64,000 nucleotides of DNA, from IMG/VR virus record IMGVR_UViG_3300023174_000087, positions 51,202 through 115,201 of that record. One strand, written 5' to 3'. Below are positions 24,847 to 42,161 of this stretch, in pieces. The stretch comes from a virus. A program made the translations under genes and the position numbers. How positions within the stretch are numbered: the first letter of the stretch is position 1; each line of letters opens with the position of its first letter. The notes below the pieces were generated by a model that saw only the letters and a list, made by a program, of their open reading frames with translations, was not told where the DNA came from and made no database searches.

Positions 24847-25417
24847 ATGGGGTATTGAAATTATTCCACAAATTATATGCTCTATTGATGCAAGTACTAA
24901 TAATCTTGCTTTTGCTATCTTTAATACTAATAAAAAAACTTTAGAATCAGTTGGTAAGATTAATTTTGAAGGTAGTAATACCTATGAAAAAGTTATGGAT
25001 GCTGGGCAAAAAGTTAAGGCATTCCTTGACATTTATGGTGGGTTTGAAGCGATAGTTATTGAGCATACAGTATTTATGAATAGCCCTAAGACTGCTGCGG
25101 ATCTAGCATTAGTTCAAGGAGCCATTCTTGGCGCTGCAGGACAATCAGGCACTAAGGTAATAGGTAGGGTTGCTCCAATAACTTGGCAAAATTTTATTGG
25201 TAATAAAAAAATATCCAAAGATGAAAAACTATATATTCGATCACAAAATCCAGATAAGTCAGATTCATGGCTTAAGGCATATGAAAGAGAACTAAGAAAA
25301 CAAAGAACAATAAATTTTATTAATATTCAGTATGATAGAACAATAAACGACAATGATGTCGCAGATGCTTGTGGAATTGGTCACTGGGCAATGAAAAATT
25401 GGGACAAAGCAATATGA
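24833..25417 (+). CDS. RuvC-like resolvase
   Basis: SIDAST, IVIEH, DNDVADACGIG. Confidence 0.8.
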   Translation: MVKNKWGIEIIPQIICSIDASTNNLAFAIFNTNKKTLESVGKINFEGSNTYEKVMDAGQKVKAFLDIYGGFEAIVIEHTVFMNSPKTAADLALVQGAILGAAGQSGTKVIGRVAPITWQNFIGNKKISKDEKLYIRSQNPDKSDSWLKAYERELRKQRTINFINIQYDRTINDNDVADACGIGHWAMKNWDKAI

Positions 25418-26469
25418 GGATATTAGTATCAATAATTTCTTATAAAGAGGGAGATCTTCGTGGAACAGTTTTAGATTGCTACAACAAAGCAAAAAATAAA
25501 GAAGATTTAATATTTTCTATAGTAGAGGAACACTATCCAGAATTTTATTCAGATTTAAGTTTTATTCCAAAGAAACAAATAATATATAGGAAATATGATC
25601 TTTCTAAATATAGGGGAATTTTATGGGCAAGAAATTTAACAACAAAAAATATTTTTGTTAACTACGATTATGTATTATATATTTGTGGTCATACGAGGTT
25701 TGAGGAAGACTGGGATGTTACTTGTTTACAGGAATACGCAAAAGCAAAAGCAAAATCTGAAACAGGTAAAGCAATTTTAACATTTTGCAGTCCAGATTTT
25801 GAGTACAATAATGACTGGTCTATTAGATATAAAGATAAAGTTAAAACAAACTTATATCATCCGTCAATAAATGGTTACGATCCAAGGTCTCAGTCTCCAT
25901 CAGATTTTATTCCAGGCTATTGGTTTCCAATTGGTCATGCTCCACCCGAAGATGATGATGTTCATGAAAACTATTGGGTTCATTTCACTTGGTGTTTTGC
26001 AGAAAAATCTTATGTGGAGGAAGTTCCATTAGATCCAGAGATGAATTTTAATGGAGAAGAACCCTATGTTTCTTTGCAATCCTGGGGTCGTGGTTGGAGA
26101 ATGTATGCAACATCTAAAATATTTTATTATCACCATCTTTCAAGATCTTATCCAGGAGAAAAAGAAAGCAGATATAGAACTGCAAGACCATGGGCAGATG
26201 ACAAAAAGAAAGAACACTGGGAGCACTCAAGAAAGGCAATGTTAAAACTCAATATGTTATTTTCTGGAAGGTTAGATGGCAAGTATGGTGGAATATCATT
26301 AAAAACAGCAACTGAATATTGCAAAAAAAGTGGTATTAATTTAAAGTGGACAGAATATGATCCAGAGTATGACAAGATTGATGGATACCAACATATGATG
26401 TGGATAAAAAATGATGAGCCAATTAAGAGAGAAGATTTAGATTGGAAAATTCCAGAGGTTGACAAATAG
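25414..26469 (+). CDS. Glycosyltransferase, Gnt1/GT60 (GlcNAc-T)-like
   Basis: ILVSIISYKE..L..TV.DCYNKAKN; GILWAR; YICGHTRFEEDWD; VPLDPEMNFNGEEPYVSLQSWGRGW; YYHH. Confidence 0.75.
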   Translation: MRILVSIISYKEGDLRGTVLDCYNKAKNKEDLIFSIVEEHYPEFYSDLSFIPKKQIIYRKYDLSKYRGILWARNLTTKNIFVNYDYVLYICGHTRFEEDWDVTCLQEYAKAKAKSETGKAILTFCSPDFEYNNDWSIRYKDKVKTNLYHPSINGYDPRSQSPSDFIPGYWFPIGHAPPEDDDVHENYWVHFTWCFAEKSYVEEVPLDPEMNFNGEEPYVSLQSWGRGWRMYATSKIFYYHHLSRSYPGEKESRYRTARPWADDKKKEHWEHSRKAMLKLNMLFSGRLDGKYGGISLKTATEYCKKSGINLKWTEYDPEYDKIDGYQHMMWIKNDEPIKREDLDWKIPEVDK

Positions 26470-26487
26470 GATTATGGCTGCTAAACT
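26459..26487 (+). promoter_or_regulatory. Sigma70-type promoter
   Basis: TTGACA-17 nt-(TGC)TAAACT. Confidence 0.55.
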
Positions 26488-26629
26488 ATATACATCAGAA
26501 GTTTTTATGCGTAAGAGATATCTCATAGATAAAAAGACTCCAGAAGAAATTGCAAAAGAATGCGGAGTAAGTCTAGAAACTATCTATGTGTATCTTGCTA
26601 AATTTGGATTAAGGAAGTCAAGAAGATGA
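26474..26629 (+). CDS. Small HTH protein (51 aa)
   Basis: KTPEEIAKECGVSLETIYVYLAKFGL. Confidence 0.75.
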   Translation: MAAKLYTSEVFMRKRYLIDKKTPEEIAKECGVSLETIYVYLAKFGLRKSRR

Positions 26630-26748
26630 ATAAGATTCAAAAAACATTTGCTGTTATAACTATTGCTAGTGCAGTGGGAATTTCCTATGCACTATATACT
26701 CTTAGGGGTTTGCCAGAAGCATTTGATTGGGAGGAAGATGATGAATAA
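26626..26748 (+). CDS. Small membrane peptide (40 aa)
   Basis: One TM segment, acidic tail; ATGA overlap. Confidence 0.45.
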   Translation: MNKIQKTFAVITIASAVGISYALYTLRGLPEAFDWEEDDE

Positions 26749-27141: not shown

Positions 27142-27664
27142 AGATGATGTTGTTAAGCATTTAGACCAAGTAAATCTTGTTGTTGAAGAATACCTAAAGG
27201 GCAATGATCCAACACAAATATCTAAAGAACTTTCTATACCAAGACAAAGAGTTGTTGCGTATATAGATGAGTGGAAAGTTAGCGCATCAAATAATGCTGC
27301 AATTAGAGCAAGAGCAAAAGAAGCACTTGCTGGAGCAGACCAACACTACGGATTACTAATATCCAAATCGTATGAAGTTATTGATGAAGCGTCAATGACT
27401 AATAATCTTAGTGCAAAAACTGCTGCAATTAAACTTGTTATGGATATTGAATCAAAGCGAATTGATATGCTTCAAAAGGCTGGTCTTCTTGAAAATAAAG
27501 AACTTGCTGACGAAATGGTTGAAATTGAAAAGCGTCAAGAAGTTTTGGTTGGAATTCTTCGTGAAATTGCTTCATCTCATCCAGAAGTTCGTGACCTTAT
27601 CATGCGTAGGCTTTCTGATATATCAAAAGAAAATGAAGTTATAACGGTAATTGCAGATGTATGA
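27131..27664 (+). CDS. Probable terminase small subunit
   Basis: N-terminal HTH plus coiled coil, directly upstream of the large subunit. Confidence 0.55.
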   Translation: MSTEDDVVKHLDQVNLVVEEYLKGNDPTQISKELSIPRQRVVAYIDEWKVSASNNAAIRARAKEALAGADQHYGLLISKSYEVIDEASMTNNLSAKTAAIKLVMDIESKRIDMLQKAGLLENKELADEMVEIEKRQEVLVGILREIASSHPEVRDLIMRRLSDISKENEVITVIADV

Positions 27665-29426
27665 TGAATTTTTAGATGTACTTAAAGACAATAACTTTAG
27701 AGAGATGCCTGTAAATGCTAAAGCATTTGTTGAGGGTGAAAATTATTTGGGTCAGCCACCACTATCAGATATTCAGTATGACATTGTAGAAGCAATGAGT
27801 CAAATATATAAATTAGAAGATGTTATTGATATCTTGGGTGAAGCAGAAGGAACTAGGTATTATAAAAAATACACTAAAAATGAAATTATTTTACAACTTG
27901 GCAAGGGATCTGGAAAAGATTTTACATCTACGGTAGCCTGTGCATATATAGTTTATAAACTACTATGTCTTAAAGAACCAGCAAGATATTTTGGAAAACC
28001 ACATGGAGATGCTATTGATATTATCAATGTGGCTATTAATGCTCAACAAGCAAAGAATGTTTTTTTTAAAGGTTTTAAAACAAAAATTGAAAATTCTCCA
28101 TGGTTTGCAGGAAAATATAACGCAAAGGCTGAGTCTATAGAGTTTAATGATTCAATTACGGTTTACTCTGGTCATTCAGAGCGTGAGTCGCATGAAGGCT
28201 TAAACCTTATTCTTGCTGTTCTAGATGAAATATCTGGTTTTGCACAAGAGGTAGCAACTGGAAACGAACAAGGAAAGACTGCAGACAATATCTATAAGGC
28301 ATTCCGTGCATCAGTAGATTCTCGTTTTCCAGATCTTGGAAAGGTTGCTCTTCTTTCTTTTCCTAGATATCCTGGAGACTTTATTTCACAAAAGTATGAT
28401 GATGTAATTGCAGAAAAAGAAGTTATAAACTACACTCATAATTTTATTATGAATCCAGATCTTCCAGAAGATGCTACGGGAAACTCACTTGAAATCAATT
28501 GGGACGAAGACACAATCGTTTCATACAAGTACCCAGGTGTGTTTGCTTTAAAAAGACCAACATGGGTTGTAAATCCTACTAGAAAAATTGATGACTTTAA
28601 GTTAGCATTTTATACAGATCTTGGTGATGCTATGCAAAGATTTGCATGCGTACCAACATATTCTTCTGATGCATTCTTTAAACAAATTGAAAAGGTTAGG
28701 TCGTGCATGACACTTCGTAACCCATTGGATAATTTTAGAAGGTTTGATGAAACATTTAAACCAGATCCAGAAAAAATTTATTATATACATGCTGACCTAG
28801 CCCAAAAACATGATAAGTGTGCTGTTGCAATTGCACATGTTGATAAGTGGGTAAATATTCAGGTAATCAAAGATTATCAGCAAGTAGCACCAGTAGTAGT
28901 GGTAGATGCAGTTGCTTATTGGGAACCAAAAGTAGAAGGTCCAGTAAACCTATCAGAAGTTAAACAATGGATTCAAAACTTAAGAAGGCTTGGATTCAAT
29001 ATTGGGATGGTTTCTTTTGACCGTTGGCAATCATTTGATATTCAGAATGAACTAAAGCAGGTTGGAATGAGAACTGAAACTGTTTCTGTTGCCAAAAAGC
29101 ACTATGAAGATATGGCTATGCTTGTGTATGAGGAAAGACTTGCAATGCCTGCTATAGATCTTTTGTTTGAAGAACTTACAGAACTTAAGATTATGAAAAA
29201 TGACAGAGTTGACCACCCCCGCAAAAAGTCTAAAGACTTGGCAGATGCGGTTTGTGGTGCAATTTTTGGAGCAATATCACACACTCCAAAAAACATGGAT
29301 CAAGAAATTGAGATCCATACCTTTAGGGATAGACCTAAAGTTGACATGAATCAAGACAATGTGATACACTATAAACCTATGCCAGATGATGTAAAAGATT
29401 ATTTGGATAGATTTAATCTACTATAA
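27657..29426 (+). CDS. terL: Terminase large subunit
   Basis: GKGSGKD Walker A; AVLDE Walker B; IHADLA; SFDRW; DHP..SKDLADA nuclease motif. Confidence 0.9.
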   Translation: MYDEFLDVLKDNNFREMPVNAKAFVEGENYLGQPPLSDIQYDIVEAMSQIYKLEDVIDILGEAEGTRYYKKYTKNEIILQLGKGSGKDFTSTVACAYIVYKLLCLKEPARYFGKPHGDAIDIINVAINAQQAKNVFFKGFKTKIENSPWFAGKYNAKAESIEFNDSITVYSGHSERESHEGLNLILAVLDEISGFAQEVATGNEQGKTADNIYKAFRASVDSRFPDLGKVALLSFPRYPGDFISQKYDDVIAEKEVINYTHNFIMNPDLPEDATGNSLEINWDEDTIVSYKYPGVFALKRPTWVVNPTRKIDDFKLAFYTDLGDAMQRFACVPTYSSDAFFKQIEKVRSCMTLRNPLDNFRRFDETFKPDPEKIYYIHADLAQKHDKCAVAIAHVDKWVNIQVIKDYQQVAPVVVVDAVAYWEPKVEGPVNLSEVKQWIQNLRRLGFNIGMVSFDRWQSFDIQNELKQVGMRTETVSVAKKHYEDMAMLVYEERLAMPAIDLLFEELTELKIMKNDRVDHPRKKSKDLADAVCGAIFGAISHTPKNMDQEIEIHTFRDRPKVDMNQDNVIHYKPMPDDVKDYLDRFNLL

Positions 29427-29441
29427 AGAAAAGAGAAATGA

Positions 29442-30569
29442 ATGAATTCATTTAAGAAAATTGCACTAGCCATGGTTGCAGCCATGACTTTGGGCACAAT
29501 CGTAGCAACACCTGCAAGTGCTGCTGTAATGACAGTCGCTGTATCGCTTGACTCTGTAGCAAACACTACAGCATCAGCAATCGCTACACCTGCATCATTG
29601 CCAGTCCCTGCAGACAACTCTGTTGATGCTGCTGATGCACTAAAGTTCGTTGCAACAGTTGACGTAGGAACAAGCGTAACTGTTTCAGCAACAAATGCAA
29701 CAATCGTGTCTGCACTACACACATCTGCTGCACCAGTAGGAGCAACATCAGGATCATCATCTTTGACAGTTGCAACTGGTACAGGAACAACAGCAACATT
29801 TTATGTCTACACAAAGACAACAGCAATTGGTACAGTTGTAATCAACAACCAGGGAACAACTCTTACATACTATGTACAGGGAACTGCTGGTAAGATTAAC
29901 TCTCTTACAGTCTCTGCACCAACATCAGGCGCTGCTGGCACAAAGCAAGACATCACAGTAACTGCAACAGATACTTTTGGTAACAAGGTTTCTGGTAAGT
30001 CAATTACTGCAACAGTATTCGCTTCAACAGCAACACTAGATACAGCAACAGCAACAACTGGTGCTACACTTTCAGACTTTGGAGTTGCTACATTTAAGGC
30101 AACACTTCCAACAACTGGAACACGCTCACTAATCACATTTGCACCAACAACTTCAACAGATGCAACATCTGCAGATGTAGTCGGACTTCCTGCTCGTGCC
30201 CTTGCACCATTTGCAGAAATCGCAGTTCGTGATCTAGTATCAGAACTTGCTGCACAAGTTGCTGCTAAGGATGCAGCACTTGCTGCAAAGGCAATCGCAG
30301 ATGCTGCAGTTGTAAAGGCTAACGCTGATGCTTCTGCTGCTAAGGTTGCTTCAGATGCTGCTCTTGCAGCAGAAAAGGCTGCTTCTGCAAAGGCACTTGC
30401 TGATGCAAAGACTGCACATGATGCAGTTGTAGTTGCTAAAGATGCACAGATTGCAAAGTTGACTGCAGATAATGCTGCTACAATTGCAAATCTTAAGGCA
30501 TCATTTAATGCACTTGCTAAGCAGTGGAATGCAAAGAATCCAAAGGCCAAGGTTACTTTAGTTAAGTAA
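29442..30569 (+). CDS. Exported Ala/Thr-rich surface protein (Ig-like domains plus coiled coil)
   Basis: Sec signal MNSFKKIALAMVAAMTLG..ASA; TATDTFGN Ig-like motif; strongly biased codon use; own terminator. Confidence 0.7.
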   Translation: MNSFKKIALAMVAAMTLGTIVATPASAAVMTVAVSLDSVANTTASAIATPASLPVPADNSVDAADALKFVATVDVGTSVTVSATNATIVSALHTSAAPVGATSGSSSLTVATGTGTTATFYVYTKTTAIGTVVINNQGTTLTYYVQGTAGKINSLTVSAPTSGAAGTKQDITVTATDTFGNKVSGKSITATVFASTATLDTATATTGATLSDFGVATFKATLPTTGTRSLITFAPTTSTDATSADVVGLPARALAPFAEIAVRDLVSELAAQVAAKDAALAAKAIADAAVVKANADASAAKVASDAALAAEKAASAKALADAKTAHDAVVVAKDAQIAKLTADNAATIANLKASFNALAKQWNAKNPKAKVTLVK

Positions 30570-30615: not shown

Positions 30616-30674
30616 GTGGAATAAAATGGTATAATCATCCTAGCAGACATCTTGTCTCTAAGGGGGAAAGGTAA

Positions 30675-32813
30675 ATTAAAAGATTAATACGCATAACAAT
30701 AGCGTCAATATTGGCTTTTGGATGGCTACTAATATCCCCACAAGATGCTCACTCTGACGATCCCTTAACAGTAGCAGCAAAACAAATTGAAAACCTCAAT
30801 AGCGCAGTAGATAAATTAGACTACAAAGATGGTCTAATAAACCTAATTGATATAGCAGAGAATAAGTTTATGTATGCTAAAAATCTACGGGATGTCAGAG
30901 ACCTAACAATTAAAAATTATGATGATGCAGTAGACGCAGAATACCTAGCATTGGAAGCAAAAGATCTTGCCCAGTCTAATGTAGATGGGCAGACAGCAAC
31001 AGTAGCCTTAGCCTTTGAACACAAGAATGATGCTTATGATGCCCTTGGGGTAGCCAACATTAATCTATCTAATGCCCAGCAAGCCTTAAATGGTGCTGGT
31101 GGAGAGGGTTTAAGATATGATGTTTATAGCCTGATTAGAGTTAATGGGCAAGCAGCCACAGATCAATTGCTATGTAGTGGTACATGGAATTCAAACTATA
31201 TGCAACTGCCAGTTTGTGGAAATCGGTATCAGAATTTCATTGTTAAATTTACTGGACAGATAACAGTTCCTTCATGGTTTACACAGGCATACTTTGCAGG
31301 ATATACAGATGATGGTTTTAGAATGTACATTGATGGGGAACTTGCCATTAATAATTGGCGGGAGCAGGGAACAACTTGGAGTGCTTATTCTCCTATATAC
31401 GATGTAACAAGTGATAAAGTTTTTGATGTAGAGATTTGGTGGTACAACGGTGGAGGACCAGGATCCTATCATCTTGGATGGGGAATTCCTGGAGGATGGA
31501 CTGGAGCAGGTTGTGACTATGCTGGAAATCCAAGAGTATGGGGACAAAACTTTAGTTGTAACTTAAACACATTTTCTTCTGGTTCTGGACCAAGTGCAAC
31601 ACAGACTGCAGAATACCAAGCAGCACTAAGTAAAAAGAATGCAGCACAGCAAGAATATAATGACAAACTAAATGTTTATAATCAAGCAGTTGCAACACTA
31701 AATTCATATAATCAAGAGTTAACTAATAAAACATCTGCGTATGAAAATGCTGTTAACGATACAGAAGATGCTTTATCTGAAAAGAATAATGCTATATCTA
31801 ATTTTAATAACGCAATCCTTGATGTTAATAGTGCCATTGATGACGCATGGCGTTACTATGATGAGCAATCACAAAGAGAAATTCAAAGAGCAATTGCTCA
31901 AGCAGCAGCCAATGCTGCAGCAAATCAACCTACACCAGAGCCAAAGCCAACTGTTGAACCAGAAAAGCCAAAGCCTTCCCCACCACCAACAGATAAGCCA
32001 GAACCAAAGCCAACTAACAATACCGCTACAGAAGAACCAGGAACAAAGCCTACACAGCCAGGACCAAAGCCTACAGAGCCTGGACCTAAACCAGAACCAA
32101 CAGACAAGCCAAAGCCAGATCCTACTGATAAGCCAAAACCAGAAGAGCCTAAGCCTACACCTTCCCCAAACCCTGAACCAAAGCCAGAGCCTACTCCAGA
32201 GCCTTCTGTAGAGCCTTCCCCAGAACCTAAACCACTTCCAAGACCAGACTTTAAGCCAGCAGAAAATATTGATCCAGTAATCAAGGATGCAGCATTAGCA
32301 GCACTTATCCCACAAAAGGGTACAGGAAATGCAGAAGATCTATCTGGGGTTATTGCAAACCTTACAAGCAAGGATAATAAATTAGTTAAACTTTCTGTAG
32401 AGCAGACTGCAGCAGTTAGTCAAACATTAAAGGCTTTAACACAGGAAGCAAAAACACAAGTCGCTGAAAACCTTGGTATTTCTGCATCAGAAGTTGCAAA
32501 GGTTGCAGATCAAATGAAATCTAACCCAGCACTTGCTGCTGCATTCGTTGCTTTTAATGATAAAGCAGAAGAAGCAGGAGATACTCCAATGCCATTTACA
32601 TTAGCAGATGCAGTAACAGAAGTACAAACAGATGAATTTTTAGCAGACCCACTTGCAGCAGTCTTTGCAGTGGATCCACTAGAACTCCTATCCAATTTCT
32701 CTGAGTTGGGTATGGACATGACAGATGATCAGAGAGAAAAAGCACAAGAAGTAATTGTCCCAGTGGTCATTGCATCACAAATTGCAGGGGCAATGATAAG
32801 GAGGAACAAATGA
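30675..32813 (+). CDS. Exported PA14-domain protein with coiled coil and Pro-rich linker
   Basis: Signal peptide; FTGQI..YTDDGFRMYIDG..WWYNGGG PA14 motif; PEPKPT repeats; start probably ATT at 30675. Confidence 0.75.
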   Translation: MKRLIRITIASILAFGWLLISPQDAHSDDPLTVAAKQIENLNSAVDKLDYKDGLINLIDIAENKFMYAKNLRDVRDLTIKNYDDAVDAEYLALEAKDLAQSNVDGQTATVALAFEHKNDAYDALGVANINLSNAQQALNGAGGEGLRYDVYSLIRVNGQAATDQLLCSGTWNSNYMQLPVCGNRYQNFIVKFTGQITVPSWFTQAYFAGYTDDGFRMYIDGELAINNWREQGTTWSAYSPIYDVTSDKVFDVEIWWYNGGGPGSYHLGWGIPGGWTGAGCDYAGNPRVWGQNFSCNLNTFSSGSGPSATQTAEYQAALSKKNAAQQEYNDKLNVYNQAVATLNSYNQELTNKTSAYENAVNDTEDALSEKNNAISNFNNAILDVNSAIDDAWRYYDEQSQREIQRAIAQAAANAAANQPTPEPKPTVEPEKPKPSPPPTDKPEPKPTNNTATEEPGTKPTQPGPKPTEPGPKPEPTDKPKPDPTDKPKPEEPKPTPSPNPEPKPEPTPEPSVEPSPEPKPLPRPDFKPAENIDPVIKDAALAALIPQKGTGNAEDLSGVIANLTSKDNKLVKLSVEQTAAVSQTLKALTQEAKTQVAENLGISASEVAKVADQMKSNPALAAAFVAFNDKAEEAGDTPMPFTLADAVTEVQTDEFLADPLAAVFAVDPLELLSNFSELGMDMTDDQREKAQEVIVPVVIASQIAGAMIRRNK
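31925..32250 (+). repeat. Low-complexity Pro-Glu/Lys-Pro-Thr coding repeats
   Basis: Imperfect CCAGAGCC/CCAAAGCC units encoding PEPKPT/PTDKPKP. Confidence 0.8.
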
Positions 32814-33037: not shown

Positions 33038-33039
33038 GT

Positions 33040-33324: not shown

Positions 33325-33373
33325 TATTTTCCCCTACTTAGATGATATACTTATTCTGAGTAGGGGAAGATAT
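33324..33373 (+). promoter_or_regulatory. Long hairpin enclosing an extended -10 and occluding the downstream SD/AUG
   Basis: GTATTTTCCCCTACTTAGA / TCTGAGTAGGGGAAGATAT arms; loop TGATATACTTAT. Confidence 0.65.
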
Positions 33374-33953
33374 GAACAAAATTATTGAGCAGCAGTTTAC
33401 AAATATATATAATAATAATAAAAATGCTGATGAAGAAACTGTTTCTGGCATTGGATCAAAAATAGAAAATGCAATAGACTTAATAAATACACTTCCAGAT
33501 ATATTAAAAAAATACGAAATATCAAGCATTTTTGATATAGGCTGTGGAGATTTTAACTGGATGAAAAATATTGACATTTCAGGAATTAATTATACTGGCG
33601 GAGAAATAGTATTAGATGTTTTTAAATCAAACAAAAAATATGAAAGTGATACGATAAACTTTATACATTTTGACATAACTTCAGATAGCATACCTAGGTC
33701 AGACCTGATTATATGTAGAGGGGTTCTTTCATTTTACAATACAAAAACAATATTAAATATAATTAATAAAATAATTAATAGTAAATCTTTGTATATCCTG
33801 TTAACAAATTTTCCAAAATCTACTGACACAAAGATAGATTTTTTGCAACCACCATATAGTTTTCCAGATCCAATAATCTCAATAAAAGATGGAGTAAACA
33901 AAGAGATTGGTTTATGGAAAATAAGTGATTTGCTAATACAAATAGATCAATGA
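33372..33953 (+). CDS. Class I SAM-dependent methyltransferase
   Basis: SGIGS; FDIGCGDFNW; DLIICR. Confidence 0.8.
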   Translation: MNKIIEQQFTNIYNNNKNADEETVSGIGSKIENAIDLINTLPDILKKYEISSIFDIGCGDFNWMKNIDISGINYTGGEIVLDVFKSNKKYESDTINFIHFDITSDSIPRSDLIICRGVLSFYNTKTILNIINKIINSKSLYILLTNFPKSTDTKIDFLQPPYSFPDPIISIKDGVNKEIGLWKISDLLIQIDQ

Positions 33954-33985: not shown

Positions 33986-34714
33986 ATGGCAATAGAAAAT
34001 AAAAAAGTACAAGAATTGCATGGTCGTGAGCATAAGTTTTTTTATAGAGATTTAAACTTAGATCTAGATGATATAACTAAAATTTTAGAGACTGAGTATG
34101 AAAGAATCCAAAAGGGAGAAATGCGTGGTGTAACTCCAGTAAATGTAGATGTGCCAAGACAAGAAATATTTTTAGAGTCAAACTCTGTTTCTACAATTAA
34201 ATCTAGAGAGTATAATGCTTTTCAAATGTACTACCCATTTTTACACGATCTATACTCTGAGGTAGTTGATATGACAATAGAAGCATGCGAATATTATGGT
34301 ATTGATTATAATGAACAAAAATATGTCTGTCAGGCCTGGTTTAATATAAATAATACAAGCAAGGGTGGAAAGTTAGATTGGCATGACCATGTTCCAATGG
34401 GAATGCTTAGTTCCACAGCATTTCATGGTTATTATTCTGTTAGTGCAGAACCATCTAAAACTCATTACCTTATTGATGGTGTAGAAAAAATTAACAACAA
34501 TAAAAATAATCGTGCAATACTTTCAAGAGTTGGCTATCCACACGCCATGGCAGATTGGAATTGGGAAGGACAAAGAATTACAATTGCCTATGATGTTGCA
34601 CCATTAAAATATTCATTACAAAAAGATTTTTTAAAATTTAAGCAACCAGAATATGCTTCATTTTGGGAACAACATTATTTCCCATTGCCACAATTAAAAT
34701 CATTAACAAAATAA
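33986..34714 (+). CDS. Putative 2OG-Fe(II) oxygenase (paralog of 37900)
   Basis: QAWFN..LDWHDH..FHGYY..PHAM..RITIAYD. Confidence 0.7.
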   Translation: MAIENKKVQELHGREHKFFYRDLNLDLDDITKILETEYERIQKGEMRGVTPVNVDVPRQEIFLESNSVSTIKSREYNAFQMYYPFLHDLYSEVVDMTIEACEYYGIDYNEQKYVCQAWFNINNTSKGGKLDWHDHVPMGMLSSTAFHGYYSVSAEPSKTHYLIDGVEKINNNKNNRAILSRVGYPHAMADWNWEGQRITIAYDVAPLKYSLQKDFLKFKQPEYASFWEQHYFPLPQLKSLTK

Positions 34715-36442: not shown

Positions 36443-36470
36443 CAAATATATAGATTGGTATAATGTTTTT

Positions 36471-37130
36471 ATGGATCCAAATAATTTTTTAAACAAGGGA
36501 AGACTTGGATCAAAATATTGGATAAACTCTGAACTAAAAACATTTGAAGAGTTGTGCAAAGATAATATCCTACAACACTCAAAATGGAAAAACTCTAAAA
36601 GTTTATTAAGTGTTGGTTTTGAAAATAAAATATTAAAACCAGCAAACGAATATGCAAGAATATTTTCAAATAAACCAGAAATAATTCAAGAAAATGATCA
36701 ACTAAGATTAAGATATAAAACCCATGCAGAAATATGGTTTGAGAAAAAGTCAGATGGATTTTATTGTTTAGACAAGGTGATGCAGCGACAATTCTATCCA
36801 TCTGAATTAGACATAAAAGTATTAAAAACAAACTTTGATGCCTTGTATAAATTTTACACGCCATGGATAATTGATTTAAATAAAAGTTTTTTAATAGAGC
36901 AAATTGATTCTTCTCCATTTTTCATACATAGCAAAGAAATTTTTTTCAATGAAATAAAAAAAGATAAAGATATTTGGGATATAGGTTTTGTTCATTTTTC
37001 TATTAAGAATATTGGAGATCACATAAAAAATTTCAATGGTGATTTTTTTGGGATAATAGATGCTCAAACACCCATGTATGATATAATCGTTGAAGATAAA
37101 GAAATAATAAAAAGGATACTAAGTGAATAA
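36471..37130 (+). CDS. Hypothetical protein
   Basis: AT-rich ORF; KFYTPW and GIIDAQTPMY weakly resemble the next gene. Confidence 0.55.
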   Translation: MDPNNFLNKGRLGSKYWINSELKTFEELCKDNILQHSKWKNSKSLLSVGFENKILKPANEYARIFSNKPEIIQENDQLRLRYKTHAEIWFEKKSDGFYCLDKVMQRQFYPSELDIKVLKTNFDALYKFYTPWIIDLNKSFLIEQIDSSPFFIHSKEIFFNEIKKDKDIWDIGFVHFSIKNIGDHIKNFNGDFFGIIDAQTPMYDIIVEDKEIIKRILSE

Positions 37131-37860
37131 AAAAAATAAAATAAAATTTTCTCCAAGTTTGCAAAATACAGAAAGTTTATCTTATCAAAATCCACCAGTT
37201 GAATCTTCAAGAGTTATACCAGATTGGTACAAAGATTTATCTGGATTTAAAAATTCATCAAGTACAAATATTAGATTTTTAAACCCAGTAAATGATCGAG
37301 GACAAGATGGTTCTGATGTATCAACAAAACTATGTCCACCATATCTAGATGCAATAATTTCTGGATACATGCACACAGCACCAGAGGATATATTTGTTGA
37401 AATTTTAGAAGAAGAAAAACCAATAATTAGTTGGAAAAGCAATGAACACCTGATTGATACAAGGCCAAAAGTTGATGTTCCTATTCCAAAAGAATGTTAT
37501 CCTGTTCAGTTTGGTTGGAAGATGACTTGGTATTATGAAACACCGCCAGGATATTCTTTATTATTTACCCATCCACTTAATAGATACGATCTTCCATTTT
37601 ACAATGCTTCAGCGATTGTAGATAGTGATATCTGGGGACTTCCAGCATTTATGCCATTTTTTTTAAAGCGAGGATTTTCTGGGGTTATTCCAAAGGGCAC
37701 ACCACTTTTTCAAATGATACCAATAAAAAGAGATAACTGGGAATTAGATATAGATATGTCTGATGAAAAATATTGGAAAAATAAAGAAAGAGAAGAAAAA
37801 AGAAGAACAGACATAACTGGACACTACAAAAAAACAACATGGCAAAAAAAGCAATACTAG
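37123..37860 (+). CDS. Conserved phage protein (dUTPase-like / DUF6065-like fold)
   Basis: KLCPPYLDA..GY; TPPGYSLLFTHPLNR; IPKGTPLFQMIPIKR. Confidence 0.5.
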   Translation: MNKKNKIKFSPSLQNTESLSYQNPPVESSRVIPDWYKDLSGFKNSSSTNIRFLNPVNDRGQDGSDVSTKLCPPYLDAIISGYMHTAPEDIFVEILEEEKPIISWKSNEHLIDTRPKVDVPIPKECYPVQFGWKMTWYYETPPGYSLLFTHPLNRYDLPFYNASAIVDSDIWGLPAFMPFFLKRGFSGVIPKGTPLFQMIPIKRDNWELDIDMSDEKYWKNKEREEKRRTDITGHYKKTTWQKKQY

Positions 37861-37899
37861 TATATGGTATAATTATTTTAACGAGAGATAGGATATAAA

Positions 37900-38559
37900 A
37901 TGCAAAACGCAATGCGTCCAATACCAAAAAGATATGACAAGCCACATAAGTTTTTTGAAAAACATCTAGACAATGATTTAGACAAGTTGGCTAACTTTTT
38001 AGAATTAAAGTACAAGCAAATAGAAGAAGCAAAAGTTCCAGGCGTAAGCAAGTTGGGCGAGAATGGAAGAGAGATTTGGCTTGAAAGCGGTAGTCTTTCA
38101 ACTGTAAAATGGAAAGAATATAATGTTTTTCAATTTTACAATGAAGAAATTTACAACCTGTTTGTGGGCATTAGAGAAACCGTAAAAGAAGCATGTGACT
38201 ACTATGGTATTGACTTTGATAAAGAAAAATATATGATTCAGGGTTGGTTTAATATTACACATAAGGGTAAGGGCAAACTAGATTGGCATGATCATGGTGG
38301 ACCATGGGCACCCTTTTTCCATGGATACTATTGTGTAAAAGCAGAACCATCATCTACATGGTACAAAATTGATAACAAAGATGAAAATGTTTTTGAAAAC
38401 AAAAATTTAGACAATCGACTTATAATTTCTGAAATGGGGCACCCACATGCGATGGCAGACTGGGACTGGGATGGATCAAGAATTACTATTGCTTATGATG
38501 TAATGCCACTAAGAGCATTACGAGGAGAAGTAAACGAACAACACTACTTCCCATTATAA
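37900..38559 (+). CDS. Putative 2OG-Fe(II) oxygenase (paralog of 33986)
   Basis: QGWFN..LDWHDH..FHGYY..PHAMADW..RITIAYD. Confidence 0.7.
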   Translation: MQNAMRPIPKRYDKPHKFFEKHLDNDLDKLANFLELKYKQIEEAKVPGVSKLGENGREIWLESGSLSTVKWKEYNVFQFYNEEIYNLFVGIRETVKEACDYYGIDFDKEKYMIQGWFNITHKGKGKLDWHDHGGPWAPFFHGYYCVKAEPSSTWYKIDNKDENVFENKNLDNRLIISEMGHPHAMADWDWDGSRITIAYDVMPLRALRGEVNEQHYFPL

Positions 38560-38560
38560 T

Positions 38561-39385
38561 ATGAACACCATCAATGTATTTATTTATTCTTATAAAGTAA
38601 AATCTTTAATAGAAAACATAACTGACATTGTTAATAAACAAAGCAATAAAAATAAAATAATATATCATATTTTTGACCAAAGCACTACTGATAAAACTAT
38701 TAGTTTTAAAAAAAGAGACAATGTTTTTTATAGATACATATCGTGGGATGACACAAAAGGGGTTCCATATTATAGAAAACATGTTTTGTTTGATCAAAGC
38801 GCTAAATACTTTTTAGAGTTGTCACCAAACATATCTTTGTCAAAAAACTGGGACAGCGTTTTAATTGAATCATTAATGCCGAATACAATAATATCTGGTA
38901 ACTCAATAAAAAAAATTAAAATAGATAAAACACATACTTATATTCATGAAGAAAAAATAGATAATATTTCTGAGTCAAACTTTATAGACACAAACTTATT
39001 ATTTTTAAAACAAAAAGATTCAATATTTTTAAATCAGTTATCATTTTTAAAATATTACGGACAAGATTTATTTGCCTCAATATTGTCTGTTGCCAGAGGT
39101 ATTAAAATTTTTTCCATGAATTCTGATTTTTATACAGTAGATTCAAAAAATATAGATATGCTATATTATCCGTATTCAAAAATGCATGGATATAATAAAA
39201 TGATTGACACCATCAATTCATTTAAAAATAACACATTTGAAAGTTTTCACAACATAAAGGTTTCAGAAATACCTAAAATGTATTATCAGGTGGATGATGT
39301 TCCTTATCATGATGCAAGAACATCTATAGATGTCTCAGCATCAACAAAATTTCATAATGGATACAATAGTATAAGGGTGCTGTAG
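38561..39385 (+). CDS. Divergent GT60-like glycosyltransferase
   Basis: INVFIYSYK..HIFDQ; GVPYYR; YFLEL..SKNWDSVLI; YYGQDLFASI..RGIKIF; collinear with 25414. Confidence 0.5.
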   Translation: MNTINVFIYSYKVKSLIENITDIVNKQSNKNKIIYHIFDQSTTDKTISFKKRDNVFYRYISWDDTKGVPYYRKHVLFDQSAKYFLELSPNISLSKNWDSVLIESLMPNTIISGNSIKKIKIDKTHTYIHEEKIDNISESNFIDTNLLFLKQKDSIFLNQLSFLKYYGQDLFASILSVARGIKIFSMNSDFYTVDSKNIDMLYYPYSKMHGYNKMIDTINSFKNNTFESFHNIKVSEIPKMYYQVDDVPYHDARTSIDVSASTKFHNGYNSIRVL

Positions 39386-39407
39386 TATAATATAATATGG
39401 TGATAAT

Positions 39408-39995
39408 ATGAACAGAATTACGGTTATTGATAATTTTATAAGCGAAAAAGATGCAAACATCTTAATCTCTGAACAGTTAAACCCAAGTGAAATAAATCAA
39501 TACCCAGAGCATTATAAAAGTAGATATGGCGGAACTGCCTTTCCATATAACAATATTGTCATGAGTATTTTAAAAAAATATGGATACCTATCTAGCGCAA
39601 AACACAAAGATTTAAATTCTTTTATTAATCCTATATATGTTTTTAAAGCATTTGGTTCTTGCTGGCTTCCAGGCACAAAGGGGGAACTTCATATTGATGC
39701 ACAAGGACCAGAGCCATGGATTGAGTTTAGTACAATTATTTATTTAAATGATGAGTTTGATGGAGGAGAACTTTATTTTCCAAATCAAAACTTAGTGTAT
39801 AAACCAAAAAAATATTCTGCTGTATTTTTTCCAAGTGCTGGTTCTGAATATATTCACGGGGTAACTACTGTTTCTTCTGGAATAAGACACACCGCTTTAT
39901 ATATGCACACAAGTTTGCCAAATAACGCAGATCCTGATTTTCATCCTAATAAAGAAAACTGGAAAGCATTGGAGCACTCGCATGTTGGATTATGA
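39408..39995 (+). CDS. Prolyl-4-hydroxylase-like 2OG-Fe(II) oxygenase
   Basis: LHID; IIYLNDEFDGGELYF; HGVTTVSSGIR. Confidence 0.85.
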   Translation: MNRITVIDNFISEKDANILISEQLNPSEINQYPEHYKSRYGGTAFPYNNIVMSILKKYGYLSSAKHKDLNSFINPIYVFKAFGSCWLPGTKGELHIDAQGPEPWIEFSTIIYLNDEFDGGELYFPNQNLVYKPKKYSAVFFPSAGSEYIHGVTTVSSGIRHTALYMHTSLPNNADPDFHPNKENWKALEHSHVGL

Positions 39996-40644
39996 AATTT
40001 TAGATCTTGGCTTAGTTTATTATAAAAATATTATTAAAAATCCAGAAAAACTCATTGAAGAGATTGAGTCTTTAGATGAAAAGTATAACAATAATATTGA
40101 AAATACAAATACACTAGTTGAGCCTTGGATAAAATGGAAATACAATTCTGGAGAAAAAGAGTTAATGTTCTGTTGGCAAAAATTTATACCACAAGTAGTT
40201 GATATTCCAGATTCTGATTTATACAAAGATGAGCAAACAAGTATCTCTTCTCAATTATTTGGAGCAATAGATAAAACTTTTGATCACTATACAAAAGAGT
40301 TGTACCCATTTGCTGAAAGAAATATAAAATCTAGAGAAAAAACCATGCACTTGTTAAAATATAATACTGCTGGACACCTACCAGCACATCAAGATCAAGG
40401 TATGAGTAGCAGAGTTTTATCAGTCCTTGTTTATTTAAACGATGATTATATAGGTGGGGATATAGAGTTTAAGCATTCTGGTGTAAGAATTAAGCCAAAG
40501 GCTGGAAGTCTATTGTTCTTTCCATCAAATTTTTTGTATGTACATGAGGTCCATCCAGTATATAAAGGTCCAAGGTATGCTCTTCCTAACTGGTTTCATA
40601 ACATACCATTTGAAAACAAAAGAGACTCTAATGGTGAAGAATGA
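39982..40644 (+). CDS. Prolyl-4-hydroxylase-like 2OG-Fe(II) oxygenase
   Basis: AHQD; VYLNDDYIGG; HEVHPVYKGPRY. Confidence 0.87.
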   Translation: MLDYEILDLGLVYYKNIIKNPEKLIEEIESLDEKYNNNIENTNTLVEPWIKWKYNSGEKELMFCWQKFIPQVVDIPDSDLYKDEQTSISSQLFGAIDKTFDHYTKELYPFAERNIKSREKTMHLLKYNTAGHLPAHQDQGMSSRVLSVLVYLNDDYIGGDIEFKHSGVRIKPKAGSLLFFPSNFLYVHEVHPVYKGPRYALPNWFHNIPFENKRDSNGEE

Positions 40645-40736
40645 AAAAAATAATAAAAAGAATTAAGTCGTATTTTATATTAAGAAAGATTAAAAAAAAT
40701 GGCAACAATGATAGATATATATACTAAGGATAAACT

Positions 40737-42161
40737 GTGATAATACTTGGAGTAAACGAAACCAGTCATGACGCCTCTGTATCTTTAATCAAAGACGGAG
40801 AGATACTTTTTGCGGGGCATGCCGAAAGATATAGCAAGCAAAAAAATGACTGGTATGTGAATGATAGTTTAATAAAAGATGCTTTACAATATGGTACACC
40901 AGATCACATAGCCTACTATGAAAAGCCTCTTCTAAAGGCCTCTAGGCTGGCTTTAAAGGGTGGTTCTGGAGAATGGAAGCCAAGGTTTGAACTTTCTGGG
41001 ATTCCAAGAAAATCTTTTACTCATCACTATTCTCACGCAGCAGCAGGGTATTATACAAGTGCATTTAATGATGCAGTGATTGTAGTTCTTGATGCAATTG
41101 GTGAATATAACACCTCCACAATTTGGGTGGGTGAAGGCGATAAAATTAAATTAAAATATAAGCAAAATTATCCTGTTAGTTTTGGATTGTTTTATTCAGC
41201 ATTTACTCAACTCATAGGTCTGATGCCAAACCAAGAAGAATATATTATGATGGGAATGGCTGCTTATGGGGACTGGACAAGATATTATAAAGAAGTAGAC
41301 GAATACTTTCCAAAATATGACAGACAAAAATATAACTTTCATAAGGGAATTAGTGACTGGGGCATTGAGATTACAGATCAGGACAGGTTTGATATTGCAG
41401 CAGCAGTTCAAGTTGTTTATGAACAAAGACTAAATGATTTTATGCGTATGGCAAAACATATTACTGGGAAAAAGAACTTAGTATTTATGGGAGGGTGTGC
41501 CCTCAACTCATCAGCAAATACATTACTTTGGAATATATTTGATATGATTTGGATCATGCCAAACCCTGGTGATGCTGGCAGTTCTTTGGGAGCAGCAGCA
41601 GCACTATACGGAAAGCATCTTGATTGGAAGACTCCATATCTTGGCTATGATCTTGGAGGAGAGTACCCTGTTCAGCAAATTGTGGACGGCATACTAAAAA
41701 ATGGAGTAGTGGCAGTAGCAACAGGAAGAGCAGAGTATGGCCCAAGAGCATTGGGTAATAGAAGTATTCTTGCTGATCCAAGAGACCCATTGATCAAAAA
41801 TAAAGTTAATCTAATTAAACAAAGAGAGTTGTTTAGACCATTTGCCCCAGTTGTTATGGAAGAGTGTGCATCTAAATGGTTTGATATGGACTTTACATCA
41901 CCATATATGCAGTACACAGTAAAGTGCTTACAGCCAGAAAAAATACCATCTGTTGTTCATGCTGATGGAACATCTAGAGTGCAAACAGTAAACAGAGATC
42001 AGCATCGTGGATTGTGGAGAACAATTAACAAGTTCTATCTTCAAACTGGCGTTCCAGTTTTATTAAATACAAGTCTTAACATTAAAGGCCAGCCATTGCT
42101 TAATGATGAAACAGATATTATTGAATGGGAAAAAGAATATAACTTCAAAATATGCAGGTAA
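40737..42161 (+). CDS. Carbamoyltransferase (CmcH/NodU/TobZ family)
   Basis: SHDAS; HHYSHAA; DAIGE; GGCALN; GDAGSSLG; EYGPRALGNRSILADP; RPFAP; LLNTSLN. Confidence 0.93.
   Translation: MIILGVNETSHDASVSLIKDGEILFAGHAERYSKQKNDWYVNDSLIKDALQYGTPDHIAYYEKPLLKASRLALKGGSGEWKPRFELSGIPRKSFTHHYSHAAAGYYTSAFNDAVIVVLDAIGEYNTSTIWVGEGDKIKLKYKQNYPVSFGLFYSAFTQLIGLMPNQEEYIMMGMAAYGDWTRYYKEVDEYFPKYDRQKYNFHKGISDWGIEITDQDRFDIAAAVQVVYEQRLNDFMRMAKHITGKKNLVFMGGCALNSSANTLLWNIFDMIWIMPNPGDAGSSLGAAAALYGKHLDWKTPYLGYDLGGEYPVQQIVDGILKNGVVAVATGRAEYGPRALGNRSILADPRDPLIKNKVNLIKQRELFRPFAPVVMEECASKWFDMDFTSPYMQYTVKCLQPEKIPSVVHADGTSRVQTVNRDQHRGLWRTINKFYLQTGVPVLLNTSLNIKGQPLLNDETDIIEWEKEYNFKICR

Follow-up and report, generated by a model that had tools for sequence, protein, structure and literature searches.

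Does an uncultured lake phage, probably infecting actinobacteria, carry the genes to hydroxylate prolines in proteins and then to place sugars on them? This question was raised by a 64,000-nucleotide stretch (hereafter the window; positions 51,202 to 115,201 of IMG/VR record IMGVR_UViG_3300023174_000087), in which a first-pass annotation proposed a hydroxyproline-glycosylation pathway at 25414-42161, comprising two GT60/Gnt1-like transferases, two prolyl-hydroxylase (P4H)-like oxygenases, a carbamoyltransferase, and an exported PEPKPT protein and a Thr/Ala-rich surface protein as candidate substrates. All of the sequence features listed there were found where they had been placed, and the observation is therefore confirmed. 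The proposed pathway is only partly supported, because the enzyme identities and the predicted co-occurrence among relatives hold, while nothing ties the two proposed substrates specifically to the enzymes.

Glycosyltransferases, oxygenases and neighbouring genes

The first transferase, GT60a (25414-26469, + strand), carries LVSIISY, GILWAR, CGHTRFEEDWD, PLDPEMNFNGEE and YYHH, and matches Pfam PF11397 at E 1.4e-20 (74.5 bits against a cut-off of 21). Its AlphaFold model is confident (pLDDT 94.8), and the top 45 Foldseek hits are all GT27 polypeptide GalNAc-transferases (E 5e-10). The first-pass annotation would have been refuted had the transferases modelled as unrelated GT2 enzymes, which they are not. 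However, the metal-binding Asp of the DxH motif is replaced by Cys, as CGH aligns with the DSH of a canonical full-length PF11397 protein, XacN1 ORF334; in 24 homologues G92 and H93 are invariant and C91 nearly so. The second transferase, GT60b (38561-39385, +), is a divergent paralogue scoring 16.7 bits (E 5e-3), below the Pfam cut-off, and has SPN where GT60a has CGH. Nevertheless, its family aligns to that of GT60a at an hhalign probability of 93% (E 3e-7) over 194 columns, and six of its 20 homologue clusters carry PF11397 in precomputed Pfam annotation.

GT60b is followed by two PF13640 2OG-Fe(II) oxygenases at 39408-39995 (+, E 5e-8) and 39982-40644 (+, E 5e-17), both of which have the HxD...H...R motif. 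The PDB sequence hits were Bacillus anthracis P4H and P3H1 for the former, and PHD2/EGLN1, PiuC and P4H for the latter; the best solved relatives (PHD2, B. anthracis P4H and P3H1) matched only weakly, at E about 1e-3. Next comes a NodU/CmcH/TobZ-type O-carbamoyltransferase (40737-42161, +), which has both carbamoyltransferase domains (PF16861 at E 1e-52, PF02543 at E 7e-34) and matches NovN, GdmN and TobZ at up to E 3e-51.

Further P4H-like genes are present, giving at least eight in the 115-kb genome. A third paralogue at 22707-23432 (+), about 2 kb upstream of GT60a, has no Pfam hit but contains an HYD motif and clusters by BLAST with the two oxygenases above in one family, and its homologues directly follow GT60 in five related loci. 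Three more lie at 49801-50448, 50916-51524 and 51521-52096 (+), and another three at 59711-60262, 61389-62102 and 62044-62679 (-). Five of these six match PF13640 in a whole-genome scan, whereas 59711-60262 does not and lacks the iron-binding histidines, so it is probably inactive.

Three other genes lie upstream of GT60b within a conserved cassette (36471-42161). The first, 36471-37130 (+), gave no Pfam hit and no hhalign relation. The second, 37123-37860 (+), is a phrog_7084 protein related to DUF6065 (hhalign 94%, E 1.5e-7), with a dUTPase-like predicted fold and a conserved Cys: the DUF6065 profile hits WSSV dUTPase at E 2e-4, and Foldseek hits to dUTPases and dCTP deaminases were weak but consistent on a poor model (pLDDT 56). 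It is probably the "dUTPase-fold protein with a conserved cysteine" of the cyanophage Syn9 dioxygenase array (PMC2938197), although this equation is inferred. The third, 37900-38559 (+), is a phrog_2696 protein that is weakly oxygenase-like (hhalign to the P4H-like family 46%, E 2e-4). Its paralogue at 33986-34714 (+) is possibly a cupin/2OG-oxygenase-like protein, with a weak phrog_81 hit; both hit the same ORF in one related locus. A small SAM methyltransferase (phrog_3382) is encoded at 33372-33953 (+), and its homologue lies between DUF6065 and GT60 in two related loci.

The two substrates proposed by the first-pass annotation lie between the two transferases. The PEPKPT stretch occupies residues about 405-515 of the 30711-32813 frame, in a PA14/coiled-coil protein with a C-terminal hydrophobic anchor, which has a Sec-type signal peptide only if it starts at ATT 30675, the probable start, behind a strong Shine-Dalgarno sequence (30675-32813, +). 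Its linker is variable among 15 homologues. The Thr/Ala-rich protein (29442-30569, +) has a clear signal peptide, an Ala-rich coiled-coil end and no Pfam hit. Both belong to the conserved backbone and are present in relatives with or without the GT60b cassette, so the Thr/Ala-rich protein is unsupported as a substrate and the PEPKPT protein remains only a candidate.

Conserved linkage and proline-rich repeat proteins

The co-occurrence of GT60 and P4H-like genes predicted by the first-pass annotation was found among relatives. P4H-like genes lie within 7 kb of GT60a in 16 of 18 lineage groups (defined at 70% identity) and directly flank it in about 11. The seven-gene GT60b cassette keeps its order in 19 loci, down to 29% GT60b identity, with GT60b always directly followed by two P4H-like genes; the first gene is in the same position in 18 of the 19, the remaining locus being cut off before it. 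GT60a is a second, separately located copy, which other relatives carry instead of the cassette. GT60 is also followed, with at most one gene between, by a carbamoyltransferase in three related loci (L049, L050 and L052), and directly in the unrelated Xanthomonas/Stenotrophomonas jumbo phages of XacN1 type. An unknown protein ("f30") directly follows GT60 in L050, L052 and a further locus, L047, and its homologue, which has no Pfam hit, is encoded here at 58008-59015 (-). We do not regard this linkage as chance, although P4H-like genes are so common in these genomes that mere proximity is weak evidence.

Comparative data point not to the substrates first proposed but to cytoplasmically made, fibre-associated Pro-rich tandem-repeat proteins. 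In 15 of 18 GT60a groups a Pro-rich tandem-repeat protein lies within about 6 kb, of the types FN3-(PPFF/PPYF)n, (PPVT)n-Cys, (PPIIAVT)n, (PPVV)n, (PVS)n, (GVSPV)n-Hint and PA14-(PEPT)n, while only 2 of 157 ORFs in the present genome are Pro-rich by the same criterion. In a reciprocal test on 44 non-redundant FN3 loci, Pro-Pro-aromatic repeats and at least five downstream P4H-like genes were concordant in 44 of 44 (Spearman rho 0.71). These loci come from related phages and the counts are not independent; on a tree of the FN3 part alone there were 4-5 independent co-transitions, all in the same direction (sign test p = 0.125), and adjacent genes can move together as a recombination cassette. 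In addition, GT60 is optional, being present in only about 6 of 80 FN3/P4H-array loci, and the XacN1 GT60 has no annotated or Pfam-detectable P4H among the neighbours scanned, so that GT60 need not depend on hydroxyproline (Hyp). Since (PPFF)n has no Ser or Thr, Hyp (or Tyr, where a PPYF unit occurs) would be the only hydroxyl available to a transferase in those loci.

Proposed protein tailoring and alternative readings

The explanation we favour, with no more than even confidence, is that the window holds dispersed parts of a phage protein-tailoring system. What the analysis establishes is enzyme family membership, fold, gene linkage and covariation with repeats, whereas every function, every chemical step and the substrate are inferred. 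In this view, P4H-type Fe(II)/2-oxoglutarate oxygenases would hydroxylate prolines, and perhaps other residues, in Pro-rich tandem repeats of the phage's own fibre-associated or adhesin-type proteins in the infected cytoplasm. A GT60-family GT-A transferase, the closest relative of the mucin-type polypeptide GalNAc-transferases, would then put a HexNAc-type sugar from a UDP-sugar on the new Hyp hydroxyl or on a neighbouring Thr, and the NodU/TobZ-type enzyme would O-carbamoylate that sugar, as NodU-type enzymes carbamoylate GlcNAc hydroxyls. Sulfate may be added by the sulfotransferase-like protein and the Asp/Asn beta-hydroxylase-like oxygenase that are encoded, together with an APS-kinase fusion, by the neighbouring genes at 44819-46782 (+), which are variably present beside the cassette in four related loci; the hydroxylate-then-sulfate idea for such trios comes from PMC2938197.

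Candidate substrates in this genome are a (VTP)9/(PAVT)7 Cys-rich fibre-region protein (genome 18707-19738), a collagen-like protein (genome 15830-16558) and the exported PEPKPT protein. Cytoplasmically made, fibre-associated repeat proteins would also remove the compartment problem raised by the first-pass annotation, that the enzymes lack signal peptides while its proposed substrates are exported. However, the parts are scattered in this genome: GT60a sits among RecA/UvsX, Cas4-like, RuvC and terminase genes, and the FN3 protein of this genome has (FGA)13, which contains no Pro. The altered DxH motifs of both transferases also count against this reading.

The alternative that survives best, though only a tentative one, is mucin-type Thr/Ser O-glycosylation without any need for hydroxyproline, in which the GT60 enzymes would glycosylate Thr in PVT/PT-type repeats directly, as the trypanosome GT60 enzymes do (that of Trypanosoma cruzi is Thr-directed), the carbamoyltransferase would decorate the sugar, and the oxygenases would modify the same or other proteins independently, for example by stiffening polyproline or collagen-like rods. 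The closest folds are Ser/Thr-directed GT27 enzymes, many GT60-adjacent repeats are Thr-rich, including (PPVT)n, (PPIIAVT)n and the VTP/PAVT repeats of this genome, most P4H arrays lack GT60, and in XacN1 no P4H was detected among the scanned neighbours of GT60 and its carbamoyltransferase. On the other hand, in seven or more lineage groups GT60 is embedded in arrays beside (PPFF)n repeats, and GT60b is invariably followed by the two P4H-like genes.

A small-molecule or glycan pathway is more doubtful. The oxygenases, transferase, carbamoyltransferase, methyltransferase, sulfotransferase and dUTPase-fold protein would then make or remodel a secondary metabolite, a decorated (Nod-factor-like) oligosaccharide or a host envelope glycan. 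Secondary-metabolite synthesis was proposed for the Syn9 tandem dioxygenase array with its dUTPase-fold protein (Iyer et al. 2010, PMC2938197), all solved relatives of the carbamoyltransferase act on small molecules, carbamoyl, sulfate and methyl groups are the known Nod-factor GlcNAc decorations, and HtrL/YibB lies near GT60 in XacN1. However, no scaffold-forming enzyme (NRPS, PKS, ATP-grasp or GT2 polymerase) was seen in the cassette or arrays, the known acceptors of GT60 and of its nearest fold relatives are polypeptides, and the perfect covariation of the arrays with Pro-Pro-aromatic repeats would be unexplained.

Hypermodification of DNA or nucleotides, in which an oxygenase would make a hydroxylated base, GT60 would glycosylate it and the sugar would be carbamoylated to protect phage DNA from restriction, is unlikely. 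It is suggested by the DNA-metabolism genes around GT60a, by the DNA polymerase, RNase H and NUDIX genes near the XacN1 GT60, by the dUTPase-fold protein of the cassette and by weak Tet_JBP matches. However, the Tet_JBP scores (17-22 bits) are far below the cut-off of 34.9 while PF13640 is clearly matched, no C5-methyltransferase or hydroxymethylase came up in the ORFs scanned (window 21-47 kb and selected loci only), the transferase fold is nearest to peptide transferases, and the link to repeat proteins would be unexplained. Least likely is that these genes are independent morons accumulating in the same hypervariable regions, as their dispersal here, the lack of the cassette at the syntenic position in close relatives and the abundance of P4H-like genes might suggest, because the cassette order is conserved down to 29% identity, GT60 adjacency to P4H-like genes recurs through many rearrangements, and the GT60-carbamoyltransferase pair recurs in an unrelated jumbo-phage lineage.

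Comparison with known systems

The Skp1 modification pathway of Dictyostelium and Toxoplasma, in which PhyA (P4H) is followed by Gnt1 (CAZy GT60), likewise pairs a cytoplasmic P4H-type oxygenase with a soluble GT60 enzyme, and further sugars or decorations follow the first GlcNAc; a second glycosyltransferase lies beside GT60 in two loci related to ours. No Skp1 is expected in a phage, and a search that was itself uninformative found none. The candidate substrates here are long tandem repeats instead of one proline, there are many paralogous oxygenases and not one, DxH is CGH or SPN, and the carbamoyltransferase has no counterpart in the Skp1 pathway.

In plant and algal hydroxyproline-rich glycoproteins (P4H, then Hyp-O-glycosyltransferases) and in animal or trypanosome mucin-type O-glycosylation (GT27, GT60), Pro-rich or Thr-rich repeats are similarly hydroxylated and/or O-glycosylated into stiff, coated rods, and the GT27 fold is the closest to that of GT60a. 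Those systems run in the secretory pathway and use other families for Hyp (GT95, GT31), while the enzymes here are soluble, lack signal peptides and occur in a prokaryotic setting. Mycobacteriophages also encode glycosyltransferases thought to glycosylate their own structural proteins, with different transferase families, no hydroxylases or carbamoyltransferase known to be involved, and C-terminal tails of capsid and tail-tube proteins as targets.

Chlorovirus PBCV-1 provides a viral precedent, since a virus-encoded P4H-type enzyme occurs there together with virus-encoded Pro-rich repeats (PMC7019647), and a match to the virus's own Pro-rich repeats is reportedly found in Eriksson et al. 1999. 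However, hydroxyproline was not detected in PBCV-1 virions (PMC7019647), and this eukaryotic virus has a single enzyme and no GT60 or carbamoyltransferase partner. Among phages, cyanophage Syn9 has a tandem array of 10 dioxygenases plus the dUTPase-fold protein, for which no repeat-protein substrate or GT60 was named (PMC2938197), and no halogenases were seen in our case. Arrays of classical 2OG-Fe(II) oxygenases with a JmjC member and a dUTPase-fold protein occur here and in related loci, and the beta-hydroxylase plus sulfotransferase theme of the same paper is also seen at 44819-46782.

Glycosyltransferases, oxygenases and carbamoyltransferase

The 64-kb window is the last part of a 115,201-bp IMG/VR virus record, which was rated complete by CheckV and has a GC content of about 33%. 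A WhiB-family gene (window about 49293-49466, genome 100494-100667; 46 bits, over the cut-off) is encoded in this record and PASTA-domain relatives occur in related loci, suggesting that an actinobacterial host is likely. Megablast of the region against 50,697 deposited phage records found no match. By tblastn, only four related jumbo phages were found for the first glycosyltransferase of the region (GT60a) and none for the second (GT60b).

GT60a (25414-26469) carries every GT60-type motif that the first-pass annotation had listed, and it matches Pfam PF11397 (GlcNAc; CAZy GT60) with a score of 74.5 bits against a cut-off of 21 (E 1.4e-20). All 46 of its homologue clusters are metagenomic or viral, and all of them carry PF11397. 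However, the DxH metal-binding motif that follows the hydrophobic strand in this family is not retained. CGH of GT60a aligns with the DSH of ORF334, a canonical, full-length PF11397 protein from Xanthomonas phage XacN1, and in an alignment of 24 homologues the G and H are invariant and the C nearly so (one has GGH), indicating that the metal-binding Asp is replaced, almost always by Cys, in this phage branch. The distal His (H240) and the GEE motif are kept. The AlphaFold model of GT60a is confident (pLDDT 94.8), and its first 45 Foldseek matches in the PDB are all GT27 polypeptide GalNAc-transferases (E 5e-10 to 1e-7), indicating a predicted GT-A fold related to these enzymes. The possibility that it models as an unrelated GT2 enzyme, which had been named beforehand as a refuting outcome, was therefore not borne out. 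Sequence search of solved structures returned nothing for GT60a and only noise for GT60b. A scan of 185,579 prokaryote genomes with the GT60a profile patterns also found no relative, although this low-sensitivity scan does not show absence from bacteria.

GT60b (38561-39385) alone scores 16.7 bits, which is below the Pfam cut-off. Its membership rests on the alignment of its family with the GT60a family (hhalign probability 93%, E 3e-7) and on the presence of PF11397 in six of its 20 homologue clusters. It has SPN at the DxH position.

The two oxygenases downstream of GT60b, starting at 39408 and 39982, are PF13640 members in which the HxD...H iron triad and the 2OG-binding Arg were read in the alignment. 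Their best solved relatives by sequence are prolyl hydroxylases, but only at E about 1e-3. The evidence for proline as the hydroxylated residue is only indirect, consisting of these matches and of the covariation of oxygenase arrays with Pro-Pro-aromatic repeats described below. Six PF13640 matches over the cut-off occur in the genome. More paralogues were found than the first-pass annotation had seen. The gene at 22707-23432, about 2 kb upstream of GT60a, belongs to the same BLAST family as the two oxygenases, and six more paralogues lie at 49801-52096 and 59711-62679, of which one (59711-60262) lacks the His ligands of the iron. The carbamoyltransferase is a clear NodU/CmcH/TobZ family member with a Kae1-like N-terminal domain and a YrdC-like C-terminal domain (PF02543, 118 bits; PF16861, 178 bits), and it matches TobZ, GdmN and NovN at up to E 3e-51. 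The N-terminal match starts at profile position 129, so the N-terminal domain is short or divergent.

The protein at 37123-37860 (phrog_7084) is related to DUF6065 (hhalign 94%), and the DUF6065 profile hits the WSSV dUTPase at E 2e-4. Its predicted structure was poor (pLDDT 56) and gave weak but uniform Foldseek matches to dUTPases and dCTP deaminases (E at least 0.02), which count only together with the two profile results, while an Atlas search added only that the protein is viral and DUF6065-related. The hhalign comparison of the unknown genes at 36471, 34731 and 35480 with the glycosyltransferase, oxygenase and dUTPase-fold profiles found no relation, and the gene at 37900 is only weakly oxygenase-like. 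Just downstream of the cassette lie an APS-kinase fusion, a sulfotransferase-like protein and an Asp/Asn beta-hydroxylase-like oxygenase, a trio of the type that was read as 'hydroxylate, then sulfate' in a previous study (PMC2938197).

Gene linkage in related phages

To examine whether the linkage of these genes is real, we retrieved 79 viral loci encoding GT60a relatives, clustered all their ORFs, and grouped GT60a at 70% identity into 18 groups. P4H-like genes lie within 7 kb of GT60a in 16 groups, and in about 11 groups they are the immediate neighbour, often on both sides. Since these genomes are rich in such oxygenases, proximity could be due to chance and is weak evidence by itself. We therefore rely on direct adjacency through many rearrangements, on the conserved cassette order, and on the reciprocal test and tree-based pairs of the FN3 proteins described below, rather than on the count of 16 of 18.

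Nineteen loci encoding GT60b relatives, down to 29% identity, all keep the order unknown gene, phrog_7084, 37900-like gene, GT60b, oxygenase, oxygenase, as far as each locus extends. This is followed by the carbamoyltransferase in most loci and by a third oxygenase in three. GT60a is followed by a carbamoyltransferase, with one unknown gene between, in three of the retrieved loci (L049, L050, and L052; L numbers denote retrieved loci). In the unrelated XacN1-type jumbo phages of Xanthomonas and Stenotrophomonas, a canonical GT60 (260 bits) is directly followed by a carbamoyltransferase, which represents one independent lineage. In these phages (L082, XacN1 215513-230496; L084; L085) the pair is followed by two unknown ORFs and an HtrL/YibB-family protein, and lies beside DNA polymerase, RNase H and NUDIX genes.

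Three relatives that are at least 99% complete have the GT60b cassette but no GT60a, as found by a search for which a positive control was run, while at least eight GT60a-bearing fragments lack the cassette at the syntenic position. The genome studied here has both copies, so the two look like alternative or additive versions of one function. In L071 (295-993) and L073 (2704-3402), a second glycosyltransferase (Gly_transf_sug with a DXD motif, GT32-like) lies directly upstream of GT60, which would fit extension of the first sugar. In L059 (11008-12387) and L080 (1166-2485), GT60 is directly followed by a 440-460-aa protein with a P4H-type domain at its C-terminus and about 350 N-terminal residues of unknown sequence.

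Candidate substrates and a proposed tailoring pathway

The first-pass annotation had proposed two exported proteins as substrates, a Thr/Ala-rich protein and a protein with a PEPKPT segment (window 31925-32250). The former (29442-30569) has a plain Sec signal. The latter, which carries a PA14 domain, ends in a hydrophobic anchor and has a proper signal peptide only if it starts at ATT 30675. This start, which is the most likely one, lies directly after a TAA stop and behind an AAGGGGGAAAGG Shine-Dalgarno sequence (window 30660-30711) and restores a typical signal peptide (MKRLIRITIASILAFGWLLISPQDAHS), whereas the mechanical ORF call starts at TTG 30711, inside the hydrophobic core. However, both are conserved backbone genes, present with or without the cassette, and nothing links them specifically to the enzymes.

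A different pattern appeared in the related loci. In the more distant GT60a loci, an Mtd_N-type tail fibre gene is followed by an FN3 protein and then by oxygenase, GT60, oxygenases, DUF6065, phrog_7084, and up to nine more oxygenases. The FN3 proteins end in 80-100 residues of (PPFF/PPYF)n or (PPGFFS)n, an example of an FN3-(PPFF)n protein being L063 (8172-9137). Other groups have, just upstream of GT60, proteins with (PPVT)n plus a Cys-rich end, P13-(PPIIAVT)n, (PPVV)n, (PVS)n, or (GVSPV)n-Hint, and these sit on FN3, LamG, PASTA or Listeria-Bacteroides-repeat scaffolds. Counting the PA14-(PEPT)n protein of the window's own lineage, 15 of 18 groups have a Pro-rich tandem-repeat protein within about 6 kb, while by the same criterion only 2 of 157 ORFs in this genome are Pro-rich.

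For a reciprocal test, 80 loci were retrieved through the FN3 protein itself. Among 44 non-redundant loci with at least 8 kb downstream, the 30 whose FN3 protein carries Pro-Pro-aromatic repeats have 5-11 P4H-like genes downstream, and the 14 whose repeats are (FGA)n, (NFY)n, (FSFTP)n or (FGVFGFSP)n have 0-1. The two traits are thus concordant in 44 of 44 loci (Spearman rho 0.71). Homologous FN3 proteins with these other aromatic repeats without Pro-Pro, which lack the oxygenase arrays, were found in L088 (7923-9610), L104, L122, L127, L130, L145 and L147. The aromatic low-complexity tail itself is the conserved theme. On a tree of the FN3 part alone, with repeats excluded, the trait changes at least five times (four forced by well-supported branches), and in all 4-5 independent pairs the array changes the same way. 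Four pairs cannot reach formal significance (p = 0.125), and adjacent genes may travel as one recombination cassette. Even so, this is the best available evidence that the oxygenases act on the repeats. However, GT60 is present in only about 6 of these 80 loci, and it is an optional addition to the arrays rather than an obligate partner.

In this genome, the FN3 protein (genome 28994-30523) has (FGA)13 plus a Hint domain and is followed by a phrog_7084 paralogue, which fits the class without Pro-Pro repeats and without an array. A Hint (intein/hedgehog-type) domain also lies right after the repeat in the (GVSPV)n-Hint protein of L077 (7284-9995), suggesting autoprocessing at the end of the repeat. 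The genome also has a fibre-region protein with (VTP)9, (VTP)7, (PAVT)7 and a Cys-rich end (genome 18707-19738), followed by a small Cys-rich DUF6171-like protein and a JmjC oxygenase. This is the same layout as in L050, where GT60, the carbamoyltransferase, JmjC, a P4H-like gene and DUF6065 are contiguous. The small Cys-rich protein (about 80 aa, weak DUF6171 match, CxxC...CxxCGC...CP motif) sits between the PVT-repeat protein and GT60 or JmjC in several lineages (L047, L050, L051, L059), and has two copies in this genome (genome 20006-20245 and 13778-13978). A collagen-like protein with about 14 G-X-Y triplets (GPVGPQGPSGKDGKDGAPGPQGPEGKQGAKGEKGPKGNDG; genome 15830-16558), a classic type of prolyl/lysyl hydroxylase substrate, is also encoded in the fibre region. 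These proteins are made in the cytoplasm, so the mismatch between exported substrates and enzymes without signal peptides, which the first-pass annotation had raised, does not arise for them.

According to these results, the observation of GT60-like transferases, prolyl-hydroxylase-like enzymes, a carbamoyltransferase and a Pro-rich protein in this region is confirmed. The hydroxylate-glycosylate-decorate interpretation given with it is partly supported, being right about the enzymes and their linkage, unproven on the chemistry, and probably wrong or at least unsupported on the substrates. In the best reading, which we hold with no more than moderate confidence, the P4H-type oxygenases hydroxylate Pro-rich repeats of phage fibre-associated proteins, GT60 adds a HexNAc-type sugar to Hyp or Thr, and the carbamoyltransferase decorates the sugar. 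Family membership, the predicted fold, linkage and covariation were established by the analysis, while the substrate and every chemical step, including the donor sugar, the polypeptide acceptor and the hydroxylation of proline, are inferred.

The strongest alternative, although unlikely, is a Thr-directed mucin-type glycosylation independent of Hyp, which is favoured by the Thr-rich repeats, by the arrays without GT60, and by the absence of a detected P4H beside GT60 in XacN1. A small-molecule or glycan pathway, as was proposed for the dioxygenase array of cyanophage Syn9, seems somewhat less likely. DNA or nucleotide modification is improbable and is suggested only by the neighbours of GT60a and the dUTPase-fold protein, and a TET/JBP-type DNA oxygenase was rejected as the main reading since those scores are far below the cut-off while the PF13640 cut-off is clearly exceeded. 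That the genes are merely unlinked morons is the least likely.

The proposed logic matches the Skp1 PhyA-Gnt1 pathway and plant HRGP or animal mucin tailoring. No PF01466 match to Skp1 was found in the genome by a search in which the control genomes gave no signal either, and Skp1, as a eukaryotic protein, is not expected in a phage of bacteria. Large arrays of 2OG-Fe(II) oxygenases in aquatic phages have been known since the first cyanophage genomes, and arrays with a dUTPase-fold protein were highlighted in 2010 (PMC2938197), but they have no demonstrated substrate or role. In gene content, the relatives studied here resemble the Syn9-type array of several distinct 2OG/JmjC dioxygenases in tandem with a dUTPase-fold Cys protein, carrying 5-14 tandem oxygenases plus DUF6065 and phrog_7084, while in this genome the genes are split into groups of 2-3, with a JmjC gene at genome 20255 and two phrog_7084 paralogues. 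A viral P4H acting on Pro-containing peptides is known from PBCV-1, where no Hyp was found in virions, and virion glycosylation is known in mycobacteriophages. Full-text literature searches found no paper on phage hydroxyproline glycosylation or on the function of viral GT60, which appears only in lists of viral auxiliary genes, and searches on Gnt1/Skp1 in phages and on DUF6065 gave nothing relevant.

The comparative pattern names concrete, testable substrates, as the arrays track Pro-Pro-aromatic or Pro/Thr repeats on fibre-region proteins, and a peptide-type GT60 transferase and a carbamoyltransferase join them in several lineages. If the chemistry were confirmed, it would show collagen-, extensin- or mucin-like protein tailoring in bacteriophages, and would bear on how phage fibres gain stiffness, adhesion, or resistance to proteases and host defences. 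It would also extend the GT60 family, known so far from protist Skp1 and trypanosome mucin glycosylation, to viruses of bacteria, with an unusual Cys-for-Asp change at the metal site. A more far-reaching possibility, which we regard as tentative and rather unlikely, is that tailed phages of freshwater actinobacteria build extensin- or mucin-like coats on their own fibre-associated proteins. In this view, batteries of P4H-type oxygenases would hydroxylate Pro-rich tandem repeats, a phage-specific GT60 branch with a Cys-Gly-His metal site would add HexNAc to hydroxyproline, and a NodU-type enzyme would carbamoylate that sugar, after which sulfation may follow. To our knowledge and by the literature searches, this would be the first hydroxyproline O-glycosylation system reported outside eukaryotes and their viruses, and it would give a function to the long-unexplained phage dioxygenase arrays.

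Genes surrounding GT60a and the cassette

GT60a sits in a recombination block (window 21252-25417), which consists of a RecA/UvsX-like recombinase, a Cas4-type PD-(D/E)XK exonuclease, a NinG-like small protein and a RuvC-like resolvase. It is followed by a DUF3310 protein, phrog_9507 and the large terminase (27651-29426). The carbamoyltransferase is directly followed by a CHAP-domain protein (42199-42747), a likely peptidoglycan hydrolase, whose position relative to the cassette differs among relatives.
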